From Candidatus Falkowbacteria bacterium RIFOXYD12_FULL_34_57 (GTDB lineage Bacteria; Patescibacteriota; Patescibacteriia; Patescibacteriales; UBA12075), in the NCBI GenBank assembly GCA_001780285.1, contig MFGN01000006.1, forward strand, positions 1 to 63,241: DNA of 63,241 nt. The letters are read 5' to 3'. Positions 53,768-62,977 of this stretch are shown here, piece after piece. Position numbers and translations under genes: made by a program. How positions within the stretch are numbered: position 1 is the first letter of the stretch; every line of letters starts with the position of its first letter. Under the pieces are notes generated by a model, which saw nothing but the letters and a program-made list of their open reading frames with translations, had not been told where the DNA came from and made no database searches.

Positions 53768-53987
53768 AAAAAAGCCTGAAAGGCTTTTTGAAGTCTCCGC
53801 CCAAGGCGGACACAGCGCCTTTCCATGGCCGCCCCAGGCGGGGGCGTGGTGAATAATGGAATATCTAATATTAAACACTTTTACCCTTTATAAATAGTAA
53901 AAAATAATCCCCCTTCGGGAGATCCCCCACAAGATGAAGCCATATAACAGATATGGGATTAGGGGGAAAATTCCTATACGATAAAAA
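53768..53987. repeat. Intergenic GC-hairpin repeat element, copy B
   Basis: Near-identical to copy A, with loop substitutions in both GC hairpins and an extra AT-rich block of about 40 nt (53863-53905) that is shared with copy C. Confidence 0.9.
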
Positions 53988-54029
53988 AGAGCCAAACCAA
54001 TGACTCTTTTTATAATATTTATAAAATTA

Positions 54030-59487: not shown

Positions 59488-59862
59488 TTATTTATGAAGA
59501 GAAACAATTTCCTCTCCAATGGTTGTAAAATTGGCATCCAGCCATTCCGGAAGCCTTTCGTTTAATTCCCGGATGCATTCTTCTTTTTCCAAATCTTGAT
59601 GTTTTTTATAAATTTCCCAAAATATCTTAAGGCCTGTGTGAGTATTACTGATAATTCTTATAGCTACCTCTTGGTTTGGAACAATATTTTTTTCTTCATG
59701 ATCCACACAGGAAAATTTTACAACATATTTATCGTTTAAGCTGATAAACCCGGATTGCAATAAAAATCTATCCACATCTTTTAACTTAAGTTTTTCAAAA
59801 AGCCTCTCAAACATAGCGACTTTCATCAATTTTTCTGTCATTACCTTCTTCTTTTCTGTCAT
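59488..59862 (-). CDS. Hypothetical protein (124 aa)
   Basis: AGGAGG precedes the ATG. The start region contains an 18-nt direct repeat (59831-59848 and 59852-59869) that duplicates the SD-like GAAGG plus ATGACAGAAAA. Confidence 0.55.
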   Translation of the reverse strand: MTEKKKVMTEKLMKVAMFERLFEKLKLKDVDRFLLQSGFISLNDKYVVKFSCVDHEEKNIVPNQEVAIRIISNTHTGLKIFWEIYKKHQDLEKEECIRELNERLPEWLDANFTTIGEEIVSLHK

Positions 59863-59889
59863 TACCTTCCTCCTTTTAATTTTCTGTAT

Positions 59890-60444: not shown

Positions 60445-62016
60445 TTAAATTGTGTCAAGTCTGGGAAAAAGCGAATCCCCGGGCTGTGCCTTTGTATCAC
60501 TTTTTAATAAGCCAAATTTAATATTATCTTCCAAATTCTTGGAAATCTCTTCATGAAAATCAAGCCCCAGTCTTGTTATTATTTTTTCGGATACTTCCGG
60601 CATAAAAGGAAAAAGCATCAGGGCCACATGCCTCAATCTCTCTAAAATATTATACATAATAATACCAGTATCTTTATTTCCTTCCTTAATCATTACCCAT
60701 GGCTGATGCTCGGTAATATAGCCGTCTAAATATTTTTGTTCATTCATAACCACTTCCAATGCCTTGTCAATTTCAATATTTTTCATATGATTTTTATAAT
60801 CTTTCCAATTCTTATTAATGTCTTTATTTAATATGCGTCCGCCCCATTTTTTTAATTTTTCTTCAGTATCCGGCCTTTCAACGCATACGGGAATACTTAA
60901 ACCAGCCAGGCGCATTTTGTCTGCCAAGGTTATAGAACGCGCAACTAAATTACCAATACCATTAGCTAAATCAGCATTGAACTTCTCATTGAATTTTTCC
61001 CAAGAAATATCACCATCGCGACCAAAAGTAGCAGCGCTCATTAGCAGGTAACGCGTACCATCCACGCCGTATTTTTGTACCAAATCTCCAGGCGCAATTA
61101 CATTACCGATGGATTTACTCATTTTCTGCCCGTCCACCAAAAAATAACCGTGCACGAAATATTTTTTAGGTAAAGGAATTTCCAATGCCAAAAGCATTGC
61201 TGGCCAGATGCTGGCATGTACCCGCAAAATATCTTTAGCCATTAATTGCACATCAGCAGGCCACATCTCCGGTACTTTCTTCGGATCTCCGGTCCAGCCG
61301 ATTCCGGTTAGGTAGTTCAAAAACGCCTCCATCCACACATAGGCCGTATGTTCTCTGTCCCACGGAAGCTCTATTCCCCACTTTATATTCTTGCGAGAGC
61401 AAGCAATATCCGCAAGACCATTATTTTTATAAAAACTCAATACTTCATTTTTGCGGGTTTTGGGACGAATCTTAAATTCATCGCCCTCAATTTTTTTAAG
61501 AAGCTCGTCTTGAAAAGCGGAAAGTTTGAACATATAACAATCTTCTTTCATTTCCTCCGGCTCCGTGCCATGATCCGGGCACTTGCCGTCTACCAAATCT
61601 TTCTCGGTTTTATACTGTTCACAACCGACACAATAGAGCCCCTTATACTCTCCTTTGTAAATAAAACCTTTATCATACAAATGCTGCAAAGCTTTTTGTG
61701 AAGCTTTTATATGGCGCTTATCAGTTGTGCGAATAAAACCATCATTGGTAATAGCCAAATTATCCCAGACTAACTCAAATTTGGCGACAAGCTCATCTGT
61801 AAACTCCTGCGGAGATTTTCCTGCCCTTTTGGCATACTCAGCTATTTTAGCTCCATGCTCATCCGTCCCTGTCAGAAAAAATGTCTTATCTCCAACCATC
61901 CGGTGAAAACGCGCTAAAACATCAGCAGCGAGAGTAGTGTAAGTACTGCCAATATGCGGATCAGCGTTTGCATAATATATCGGAGTGACTACATAAAATT
62001 TATTTTTTGAACTCAT
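60445..62016 (-). CDS. metG: Methionine--tRNA ligase (short form, no C-terminal tRNA-binding appendix)
   Basis: 523 aa. Has ADPHIGSTYT (HIGH), a CVGCEQY...CPDHG zinc knuckle and KMSKS. Its own TTGCAT-17-TACTAT promoter lies at about 62040-62068. Confidence 0.93.
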   Translation of the reverse strand: MSSKNKFYVVTPIYYANADPHIGSTYTTLAADVLARFHRMVGDKTFFLTGTDEHGAKIAEYAKRAGKSPQEFTDELVAKFELVWDNLAITNDGFIRTTDKRHIKASQKALQHLYDKGFIYKGEYKGLYCVGCEQYKTEKDLVDGKCPDHGTEPEEMKEDCYMFKLSAFQDELLKKIEGDEFKIRPKTRKNEVLSFYKNNGLADIACSRKNIKWGIELPWDREHTAYVWMEAFLNYLTGIGWTGDPKKVPEMWPADVQLMAKDILRVHASIWPAMLLALEIPLPKKYFVHGYFLVDGQKMSKSIGNVIAPGDLVQKYGVDGTRYLLMSAATFGRDGDISWEKFNEKFNADLANGIGNLVARSITLADKMRLAGLSIPVCVERPDTEEKLKKWGGRILNKDINKNWKDYKNHMKNIEIDKALEVVMNEQKYLDGYITEHQPWVMIKEGNKDTGIIMYNILERLRHVALMLFPFMPEVSEKIITRLGLDFHEEISKNLEDNIKFGLLKSDTKAQPGDSLFPRLDTI

Positions 62017-62094
62017 ATTTTTATTAAATTTATTGCTTAATTAACTACTTTAATAGTATCTAAAAAACCAAATCAATGCAAATAATAGATAGAT

Positions 62095-62119
62095 AAGACC
62101 CGACACTTTGTCGGGTCTT
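62095..62119 (-). terminator. Hairpin after the 62-aa gene
   Basis: aagacccgaca-ctt-tgtcgggtctt. The U tract is weak. Confidence 0.55.
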
Positions 62120-62127
62120 GGCACGTT

Positions 62128-62316
62128 CTACTCTACAAAGAATATAATTTTTGATTCTTCTCCCCTTTTGATTTCTTTAATTTGATATATAGGCACAAAC
62201 ATCCGAATCGGTCTTTCTGCATTTCCTGCATTATACCCTTTAGCTTTTTCATAGTTTTTTAATTTCGTAAATTCTTCTGCGGAAAAAAATACCTCTACTG
62301 TTGCATACTGCGTCAT
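62128..62316 (-). CDS. Small hypothetical protein (62 aa) controlled by attenuator L3
   Basis: GGAGG lies 8 nt before the ATG. Sequence is MTQYATVEVFFSAEEFTKLKNYEKAKGYNAGNAERPIRMFVPIYQIKEIKRGEESKIIFFVE. Confidence 0.6.
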   Translation of the reverse strand: MTQYATVEVFFSAEEFTKLKNYEKAKGYNAGNAERPIRMFVPIYQIKEIKRGEESKIIFFVE

Positions 62317-62543
62317 TTTTTTGCCTCCTTTTTGGGTTATTAAAGAACTATTGATTAAAAATTAAAAAAACCGATTATTTTTTAAATAATCGGTTTTTAT
62401 ATATGTAATTTTAATTTTGATATCAAATATTTTTACACATTAAAACCGACCTGTTTTAACCAAAACAGGTGCATGTATGAATAGATTCTTGTGTAAATAT
62501 TTTTCATATATTAAATACTAGCAAAGAAAAAAATATCAGTCAA
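62317..62543 (-). promoter_or_regulatory. Promoter plus leader-ORF transcription attenuator L3 (Tyr/aromatic-rich)
   Basis: TTGACT (62538-62543), 17 nt, TAGTAT (62515-62520), 7 nt, ATG. S0 is UUUACACA (62490-62497). S1 is UCGGUUUUAAUGUGUA. S2 is UACAUAUAUAAAAACCGAUUAU. The terminator is 62364-62398 with U7. Confidence 0.65.
62433..62507 (-). CDS. Leader ORF L3 (24 aa)
   Basis: MKNIYTRIYSYMHLFWLKQVGFNV. Confidence 0.45.
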   Translation of the reverse strand: MKNIYTRIYSYMHLFWLKQVGFNV

Positions 62544-62557
62544 GAAGTGACTGGTTT

Positions 62558-62977
62558 GTGGCGAGTTTGTTATATATTATGATCGCCTTAATTATTTTAA
62601 TAGTTACAATTATAGCTACATATATTTTAATATTTTCTTCTTGGTTATTTGACAGTTTTACTGTAGTTAATTTTTGGTGGGGCTTAGGAGCAATTATTTC
62701 TATGATACTTATTTCAGATGTACTAACTAAAATTTTAGCCTTTCTAATTGTTTATTACGAAAAACCTAAAATAACAAGAAATGCAATTAGATTACTAACG
62801 AGTAGTAAATCAATAAAAGAGCTAGAAAATAATATTGAGAAAGTAAAAGAACAAATATTCAATTCGGTTTTTGCAGAAAAAGGTTGCAATTTTTTTAACT
62901 CTTCTCGTCTTTTAGATGAAGAAAGTATTAATTCAGCAATAAGAAAAACGGCAAAAAAACTTGAATGTAATAATTAA
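62558..62977 (+). CDS. Small membrane protein (hypothetical)
   Basis: 139 aa from GTG 62558 (alternative ATG at 62579). Two or three TM helices followed by a helical tail. Confidence 0.5.
   Translation: MASLLYIMIALIILIVTIIATYILIFSSWLFDSFTVVNFWWGLGAIISMILISDVLTKILAFLIVYYEKPKITRNAIRLLTSSKSIKELENNIEKVKEQIFNSVFAEKGCNFFNSSRLLDEESINSAIRKTAKKLECNN

Follow-up and report, generated by a model that had tools for sequence, protein, structure and literature searches.

A predicted leaderless attenuator before a gene for a 62-amino-acid protein in a Candidatus Falkowbacteria genome

Attenuation by a translated leader peptide is a textbook mechanism, and the question raised by the locus described here is what such a sensor of tRNA charging controls when the first gene behind it encodes a protein of only 62 amino acids (aa). 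The window, that is the whole 63,241-nucleotide (nt) stretch of DNA that was analysed, belongs to contig C6 of the 1.6-Mb genome of Candidatus Falkowbacteria bacterium RIFOXYD12_FULL_34_57 (34% G+C, estimated completeness 96.6%). Its minus strand carries a candidate attenuator, L3, composed of a promoter, a 24-codon open reading frame (ORF), four pairing segments (S0 to S3) and an intrinsic terminator, and followed by the 62-aa gene. A reading of the sequence alone, here called the original prediction, had taken L3 for the third member of an attenuator family, next to L1 and L2 of the same window, and the tiny protein for its only regulated cargo. We favour, with a probability of about 0.55, the reading that L3 is a ribosome-mediated four-segment attenuator acting on a leaderless mRNA, that its main cargo is the 62-aa gene and that most read-through ends at the hairpin at 62119-62095. 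Judged from its sequence, L3 is probably a genuine, functional attenuator of the aromatic (Tyr-biased) leaderless type.

The promoter of L3 (Table 1) matches 9 of the 12 consensus positions and has in addition the TG of an extended -10 element; both inspection of the sequence and a promoter scan placed it where the original prediction had put it, with the same spacing (TTGACT, 17 nt, TAGTAT, 7 nt, ATG). The ATG at 62507 is 7 nt past the -10 hexamer and is not preceded by a Shine-Dalgarno (SD) sequence, and the L3 transcript is predicted to be leaderless or nearly so. The same layout characterises the family described below, where an SD-like motif upstream of the leader ATG is found in none of 35 members and a -10-like hexamer lies 3-13 nt upstream of the ATG in 31 of them, the commonest spacing being 7 nt and most spacings falling between 6 and 9 nt. 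Since the leader starts have no SD and the -10 is so near the ATG, the mRNAs translated in this family appear to have little or no 5' untranslated region.

The leader ORF is present as proposed, with its aromatic, His and Met codons: Tyr codons are found at positions 5, 9 and 11, followed by Met12, His13, Phe15 and Trp16. The nearest leader peptides in related genomes are also of the aromatic type, namely MKNIQTKTYFSFFFSFWAF in genome G078, which precedes a prephenate dehydratase gene, and MNNLHRNSYMTAYFWFF in G254. With a modelled ribosome footprint that extends from the A-site codon 15 nt backwards and 12 nt forwards, a ribosome stalled at any codon up to about 12 masks S0 and leaves S1 free, and for stalls at codons 15-16 the S0:S1 helix re-forms. 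The effective stall window of L3 is Y-T-R-I-Y-S-Y-M, which makes tyrosine the best candidate for the amino acid sensed.

All pairings proposed for the leader could be located, two of them in corrected form. The complementarity between the 5' end and the stop-codon region exists, but it is not a perfect 15-mer; it consists of 8 bp, a 2-nt bulge and 5-6 bp, and continues as the S0:S1 helix of about 19 pairs (duplex -14.6 kcal/mol, z = -2.4). The S2:S3 terminator (62398-62366) ends as expected in seven U residues (T at 62370-62364), but its stem has 15 pairs when A-U pairs are counted, instead of 12. The S1:S2 antiterminator and, at 62470-62449, the internal hairpin are as originally described. 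This hairpin, which is specific to L3, was scored terminator-like by the scan and, together with the CGGUUUUAAU that follows it, is a possible pause site for RNA polymerase. The helix energies are -17.7 kcal/mol for S0:S1 plus internal hairpin, -14.9 for S1:S2 and -14.2 for S2:S3, and the 153-nt leader as a whole folds at -34.6 kcal/mol as compared to -17.3 (standard deviation 3.1) for shuffled sequences (z = -5.6; none of 200 shuffles as good). Just past the terminator stands a conserved box, GTTC[CT]TT(AAA), found 3-25 nt after the terminator in 20 of the 35 members (searched within 40 nt) versus 0.9% of random 46-nt windows. The box contains TTNTTT, which we take to be the NusG-dependent pause-site motif of the Bacillus subtilis literature.

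In the mechanism that we propose, transcription would begin with the A of the AUG or directly beside it, and the 24-codon leader would then be entered by a ribosome. When aromatic aminoacyl-tRNAs are plentiful, the ribosome would reach the UAA and cover S1, S2 would pair with S3, and transcription would stop at U7; when no ribosome has loaded, the outcome would be the same, as S0:S1 would leave S2 free for S3. A stall in codons 5-12 (Tyr5, Tyr9 and Tyr11, but also Thr, Arg, Ile, Ser and Met) would instead mask S0 and free S1 to pair with S2, so that no terminator would form and transcription would go on. The signal, as far as the codon content tells, is likely to be a shortage of aromatic, chiefly tyrosyl, tRNA. 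The first and main gene regulated in this way would be, on sequence evidence, the SD-led 62-aa gene; metG, the next gene, probably has a basal promoter of its own, and some spill-over into it is possible.

Evidence for the pairings comes above all from other genomes. In this genome only three copies are present (L1, L2 and L3), with a mean column identity of 75% and a common exact core UCGGUUUU / AAAACCGAUU / AAUCGGUUUUUU. Exact and one-mismatch pattern searches for UCGGUUUU...AAAACCGA...UCGGUUUU in the 25 genomes of the family gave nothing but chance matches outside this genome, and the attenuator family became visible only by means of a covariance model. Upstream of ATP-grasp homologues in other genera there are leaders of the same logic with different stems, each of which folds into S0:S1 and S2:S3 when complete and into S1:S2 if truncated ahead of S3. 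The model (R1) was built from ten S1-to-S3 segments and searched against 316 genomes of the order; inspection of 44 matches gave about 35-40 credible members, spread over many families of the order and each carrying a promoter, a terminator with a U-run and an ORF of 23-34 codons whose end lies within S1 or shortly past it. L3 itself scores 50.3 bits (E = 1.3e-6, model positions 1-80), a value that is partly circular as L3 is one of the ten seeds; the new members in other genomes are non-circular. Its membership in the family, as originally claimed, is supported by this score together with the S0/S1/S2/S3 logic and the leaderless layout.

The alternative pairings, on whose occurrence in homologues the original prediction had been staked, were found in the relatives. 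In 29 aligned sequences the antiterminator S1:S2 is 90.3% paired with five pairs changed on both sides, although the alignment was not fitted to S1:S2; its covariation score was reached by none of 500 shuffles, and slid controls were at most 60% paired. For the terminator S2:S3, in 29 model-aligned sequences, pairing is 98.6%, eight of ten pairs are changed on both sides, and again none of 500 shuffles reached the covariation score. In most members S0 also pairs significantly with S1 (z = -2 to -5), and a AUUUACAAAC-like S0 motif recurs in codons 3-8.

Family leaders carry runs of a single type of amino acid, either Phe/Tyr/Trp, Ile/Leu or Asn. Two of the Phe-rich leaders, in G021 (same family as the window; FFFSGFFFF) and in G078 (YFSFFFSFWAF), precede genes for prephenate dehydratases, which match PF00800 with E values of 7e-43 and 2e-52. 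This pheL-pheA arrangement ties the codon content of the leader to the function of the cargo. In the genome studied here, own-genome tblastn with the proteins of the two relatives found no prephenate dehydratase. Other cargo was noted in passing. Two Asn-rich leaders (NDNNNGN and GNNN; L086 and L019, G065:C2 132073-135000) are followed by a gene for a Mqo/DAO-type flavin adenine dinucleotide oxidoreductase and then by an ATP-grasp ligase gene, which suggests an asparagine-type version of the same switch. In the large genus g80 (L062, L063, L067, L068, L074, L079) the commonest cargo is a protein family of 270-300 aa without Pfam match, and a second unknown family, of about 500 aa, occurs as cargo in genus g42 (L059, L085).

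The common core of the three leaders bears on the idea that L3 is a duplicated and decaying leader of L1 type, which would have lost any useful sensing and would now be a constitutive, leaky terminator or insulator before a recently acquired phage-like small gene. The exact core points to duplication inside this genome, L3 scores lower with the model than its two sisters (50 versus 62-63 bits for L1 and L2) and has the fewest aromatic codons, S1 is read in another frame than in L1 and L2, and both the 62-aa gene and the divergent 139-aa ORF beside it are absent from relatives. This scenario is nevertheless unlikely. The four segments, the ORF, the position of the stop codon, the promoter and the GTTCTTT box are all intact, the other frame, ending in xGF[ND]V-stop, is also used by the distant member in G266 (...AGFDV-stop versus ...VGFNV-stop), and a similar mixed Tyr-Met-Phe-Trp leader exists in G254. 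As to the number of codons, the E. coli trp leader functions with only two regulatory ones.

It is very improbable that the short ORFs are themselves the functional products, such as hydrophobic type-I-toxin-like peptides or peptide-coding small RNAs, whose transcript is merely ended by the terminator and whose downstream gene is unrelated. Conservation in the family is at the level of the RNA (S0-S3) and extends across two reading frames, the peptides vary freely save for the runs of one amino-acid type, for cargo of known pathway these runs fit that pathway (Phe leaders and prephenate dehydratase), and most members have an SD-led gene on the same strand within 25-80 nt. What speaks for products of this kind is the hydrophobic character of the leader peptides, their length of 23-34 aa, and the action in trans of both the attenuator RNA and the leader peptide encoded by trpL in Sinorhizobium meliloti (PMC6614838, PMC7298713).

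The GGAGG and the 62-aa ORF named in the original prediction are real as the first downstream gene. Codon usage of the ORF scores 0.31 bits per codon; pieces of 62 codons cut from long genes average 0.28, and among 517 spurious ORFs of comparable length no more than 0.2% attain 0.31. Own-genome tblastn detected a 70-aa paralogue outside the window (G000:C1:11488-11700; 38-39% identity), which has its own SD (AAGGGGGG) and its own terminator and no attenuator; directly downstream of it another copy of the repeat element at window positions ~53770-53990 is found. The profile search and structure prediction proposed for the protein gave a match to PHROG 21023 (E = 6.9e-7, residues 3-59 against profile positions 3-59 of 70) and a single-sequence AlphaFold (AF2) model of beta-alpha-beta-beta-beta topology with a predicted local distance difference test (pLDDT) score of 73.9. 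A profile of the two paralogues matched a 72-aa protein of Bacillus phage vB_BsuM-Goe27 (WCS70065.1) with an hhalign probability of 91.5%, and for ten other tiny cargo proteins, used as control, no PHROG match below 1e-3 was obtained. The phage proteins of PHROG 21023 and 21744 align with the 62-aa protein over nearly its full length, yet the likeness is remote (about 36-42% identity over 45-55 residues), and in distinction to them the 62-aa gene is chromosomal and stands behind an attenuator.

Foldseek with the 62-aa model against the PDB gave nothing at E <= 0.001, and there was no match to the 62-aa protein in Pfam or NCBIfam. It finds only itself among 5.8 billion proteins and, by phmmer, among 1.84 billion representatives, and the only other contig found to hold the gene, from a Joint Genome Institute metagenome, is identical, so that there is no strain variation. 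The SD, the codon usage, the paralogue and the phage homology make it very probable that the 62-aa ORF is a genuine gene, and by the model its product would be a small alpha/beta protein of a sparse, phage-linked family. The doubt that the ORF might not be conserved was half borne out: no orthologue was found in the 316 genomes of the order or in the two protein libraries, but it does have a paralogue and remote phage relatives. Two other readings were considered and dropped. As a remnant of an ATP-grasp protein, or as kin of the 153-, 124- and 151-aa neighbours or of other tiny cargo, BLASTP found nothing. A role as LysW-like carrier came to mind from the C-terminal Glu and the ATP-grasp and M20 genes nearby; LysW carries a Cys4 zinc-finger motif, and the 62-aa protein has no Cys.

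Several points weigh against the reading of L3 as a tyrosine-biased attenuator of the 62-aa gene. L3 has the weakest codon signal of the aromatic leaders: its three Tyr codons are non-adjacent and form no tandem run, whereas other members show clear runs (FFFF, IIILI, NNNNNN) and L1 has FFFFYFF. Phe15 and Trp16 are placed where a stalled ribosome no longer masks S0. Equilibrium folding of L3 always prefers the terminator, and, as the helix energies are similar, the decision of the switch would have to be kinetic, as it is in classical systems. The transcription start, the 3' ends and the response to amino acids are all inferred. On the side of the cargo there is no known link to tyrosine, the 62-aa protein is itself rich in aromatic residues (10 of 62, 16% Phe plus Tyr), and the 316 genomes of the order hold no orthologue, the one match being at chance level (E ~0.01) with internal stop codons. 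Finally, the hairpin after the cargo gene has no U-run, its longest T-run being 2, as opposed to a T-run of at least 4 at 82% of 144 strong 3' hairpins in this genome, and the candidate promoter of metG matches only 7 of 12 consensus positions, which is below the threshold of the scan, and was not listed by it.

The last two points bear on where the regulated transcript ends. Both the hairpin and the separate metG promoter had been claimed at the outset; the hairpin exists and is strong but lacks the T-run, and the promoter is a -35/-10 pair at correct spacing but a poor match. Two roles are conceivable for the hairpin, that of a weak terminator and that of an intercistronic element. In a rival reading L3 would govern an operon, with read-through past the U-less hairpin into metG and the 153-aa and 124-aa genes, and would serve, at least in part, to attenuate an aminoacyl-tRNA synthetase gene, much as pheM does for pheST in E. 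coli. We regard this as a serious though rather unlikely alternative. Beside the missing U-run, it is favoured by the 53% of U-less hairpins (only 19 cases) that have a co-directional gene within 200 nt, versus 30% of the rest, by the lack of any promoter with at least 9 of 12 matches between the 62-aa ORF and metG, by the start of metG only 78 nt past the hairpin, and by the position of Met12 within the effective stall window. Met12 is, however, the single internal Met codon of the leader, and metG, as a single-copy and presumably essential aminoacyl-tRNA synthetase gene, should not hang on a transcript made only in starvation. Moreover, in the two relatives that keep the synteny of metG, ATP-grasp and M20 genes (G023 and G024) metG is solitary, has a -10-like box near its ATG and lacks a leader, no model match adjoins metG in the 24 family genomes holding it, and the tail of the strong hairpin is U-rich (9 of 15). 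The claim that the cargo is the tiny protein alone stands in so far as the 62-aa gene is a real, SD-led first gene and metG has no leader in G023 and G024, and falls short in so far as the hairpin is U-less and the metG promoter weak. We keep to the reading in which the 62-aa gene is the main cargo.

The unit expected from L3, namely attenuator, tiny ORF and terminator, recurs in relatives, and attenuators with tiny ORFs were found in at least eight related genomes. Tiny cargo with a U-run terminator of its own occurs in G061 (62 aa), G266 (48 aa), G271 (71 aa) and G084 (63 aa, a zinc ribbon); further tiny cargo is found in G266 (61 aa), G183 (52 aa), G253 and G271 (71 aa, conserved between both), G047 (68 aa) and G081 (57 aa). 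By BLASTP these proteins are unrelated to the 62-aa protein. In G023 and G024, just downstream of metG, the order is leader A, SD, a 45-aa ORF, leader B, a 151-aa ORF, an ATP-grasp gene and an M20 gene, and the 45-aa ORF differs between the two genomes by two synonymous changes and one in-frame 3-nt indel.

In this tandem arrangement between metG and the ATP-grasp operon (L047, 4534-5022 in G023; L048, 2939-3426 in G024), leader A is followed by the Lys/Glu-rich 45-aa ORF and then by leader B, and neither a promoter nor a terminator is evident between them; a single transcript may here be gated in two stages and by two amino acids. A second observation concerns the cargo of L075 (G183, 52 aa) and L084 (G266:C22, 48 aa), both behind Phe-rich leaders, which have a common C-terminal motif LL[DE]YYR...C; as the 61-aa cargo at G266:C6 likewise ends in Cys, these proteins may form a conserved micro-protein family.

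Comparison with known systems shows the same logic in different materials. Like the classical enterobacterial attenuators (trpL, pheL-pheA, hisL, leuL, thrL, ilvL/ivbL and pheM-pheST), L3 has a short ORF with codons for the amino acid that it would sense, four segments forming 1:2, 2:3 and 3:4 helices, an intrinsic terminator before the cargo and a stop codon so placed that a terminating ribosome blocks segment 2; the likeness to pheL-pheA extends to the Phe-rich leaders before prephenate dehydratase in relatives. In distinction to them, L3 resembles, by sequence as by covariance model, none of the leader families of Rfam (Phe_leader, Trp_leader, His_leader, Leu_leader, Thr_leader and others), its leader ORF has no SD and starts 7 nt past the -10, its host is a member of the Patescibacteria, its regulatory codons are scattered Tyr codons and not a run, and its cargo is an unknown 62-aa protein and not a biosynthetic enzyme.

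Two leaderless systems come closer in one respect, the leaderless start predicted for L3. The leaderless polycysteine short ORFs of mycobacteria (Canestrari et al., bioRxiv 10.1101/834739) are, as L3 would be, sensory ORFs whose speed of translation reports on one amino acid; several per genome form a ribosome-directed regulon, and they act on translation and not on termination. The read-out of L3 is an intrinsic terminator with U7, and the amino acid, the lineage and the sequences differ; inspection by eye of the 33 nt between the U-run and the SD showed no complement to the cargo GGAGG that would point to unmasking of the ribosome-binding site. The ilvBNC attenuator of Corynebacterium glutamicum, discussed as a case of leaderless initiation in which a 5' hairpin also blocks the start codon (PMC11857589), is translation-dependent, as L3 would be, and has terminator, antiterminator and anti-antiterminator hairpins, but it senses branched-chain amino acids, has a biosynthetic cargo, belongs to the Actinobacteria and has no sequence relationship to L3. 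Rfam matches of the window above the gathering threshold were two tRNAs only, no Rfam leader family matched in 62000-62600 even at E values up to 10, and a full-text literature search found no paper on leader-peptide attenuation in Patescibacteria. The RNA family is apparently undescribed and widespread in the tiny genomes of this group.

The order of elements on the minus strand is L3, the 62-aa ORF, the hairpin, metG, the 153-aa ORF, the 124-aa ORF and a terminator, beyond which L1 and L2 each precede an ATP-grasp gene of their own; an M20 peptidase gene and a Kazal-domain gene come last (positions of the features around L3 in Table 1). The divergent 139-aa ORF has a G+C content of 0.255 and of 0.157 at third codon positions, which is below the 5th percentile of the genome, and no homologue of it adjoins metG in relatives; any promoter of this ORF would be antisense to the L3 leader. 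The -35 of L3 coincides in part with a minus-strand hairpin of 6 bp at 62537-62553 (CAGTCA-CTTCT-TGACTG, then ATATTTTTTT), which is rated terminator-like by the scan; it may insulate L3 against antisense or upstream transcription. An integrated element was considered and is not supported, as the region is flanked neither by a copy of the tRNA-Ser 3' end nor by another att-like repeat, and the G+C content of the cargo gene (0.32) is within the range of the genome. At 59831-59872 a 21-nt tandem duplication in perfect register (95% identity) covers the ribosome-binding region and the start of the 124-aa ORF, giving two in-frame copies of GGTAATGACAGAAAA (MTEKKKVMTEK...).

Table 1. Coordinates of L3, its proposed cargo and the neighbouring features in the window.
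Feature	Position	Strand	Description
L3 attenuator	62543-62364	minus	
L3 promoter	62515..62543	minus	-35 TTGACT 62543-62538, 17-nt spacer, extended -10 TGcTAGTAT (-10 at 62520-62515)
Leader ORF	62433..62507	minus	24 codons + TAA; encodes MKNIYTRIYSYMHLFWLKQVGFNV; translation inferred
S0	62484..62503	minus	AAAAUAUUUACACAAGAAUC, codons 2-8; pairs with S1; anti-antiterminator
Internal hairpin	62449..62470	minus	ACCUGUUUU-GGUU-AAAACAGGU, then CGGUUUUAAU; L3-specific; 9 bp, -9.4 kcal/mol
S1	62425..62450	minus	GUCGGUUUUAAUGUGUAAAAAUAUUU; last six codons + stop codon; pairs with S0 or S2
S2	62384..62408	minus	UUACAUAUAUAAAAACCGAUUAUUU; 3' arm of antiterminator and 5' arm of terminator
S3 + U7	62364..62380	minus	AAAUAAUCGG; intrinsic terminator of the attenuator
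Conserved box	62340..62348	minus	GTTCTTTAA, just past terminator; also L1 59195-59205, L2 57622-57632 (approximate)
Cargo gene	62128..62328	minus	GGAGG 62328-62324, 7 nt before ATG 62316; 62-aa ORF, MTQYATVEVFFSAEEFTKLKNYEKAKGYNAGNAERPIRMFVPIYQIKEIKRGEESKIIFFVE
GC-rich hairpin	62095..62119	minus	AAGACCCGAC-AAAGU-GUCGGGUCUU, tail AUCUAUCUAUUAUUU; 8 nt past 62-aa stop; -16.9 kcal/mol
Candidate metG promoter	62053..62081	minus	TTGCAT-17-TACTAT; read from sequence
metG	60445..62016	minus	methionyl-tRNA synthetase, 523 aa; no obvious SD; possible secondary read-through recipient
tRNA-Ser	63184-63100	minus	upstream of L3
139-aa membrane ORF	62558-62977	plus	divergent; between tRNA-Ser and L3

For bacteria with such tiny genomes, one of which is without a detectable prephenate dehydratase, what a sensor of tRNA charging switches on becomes a testable question. 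L3 places the sensor before a micro-protein with phage relatives instead of before an enzyme, and the layout recurs in related genomes. For annotators it means that "terminators that terminate nothing" and unannotated 24-codon ORFs can be regulatory units. Three switches of about 150 nt each, with small cargo genes, offer an entry point to the starvation responses of uncultivated bacteria. Tentatively, and as a conjecture that we hold to be doubtful, Patescibacteria may keep the S0-S3 leader as a portable leaderless sensor of charged tRNA, a regulatory socket for exchangeable micro-protein genes, some of them phage-derived as the 62-aa gene would be; hunger for amino acids would then switch on fast-evolving tiny effectors and not biosynthesis, and among the possible targets of these effectors are the host cell, phages and the translation machinery.

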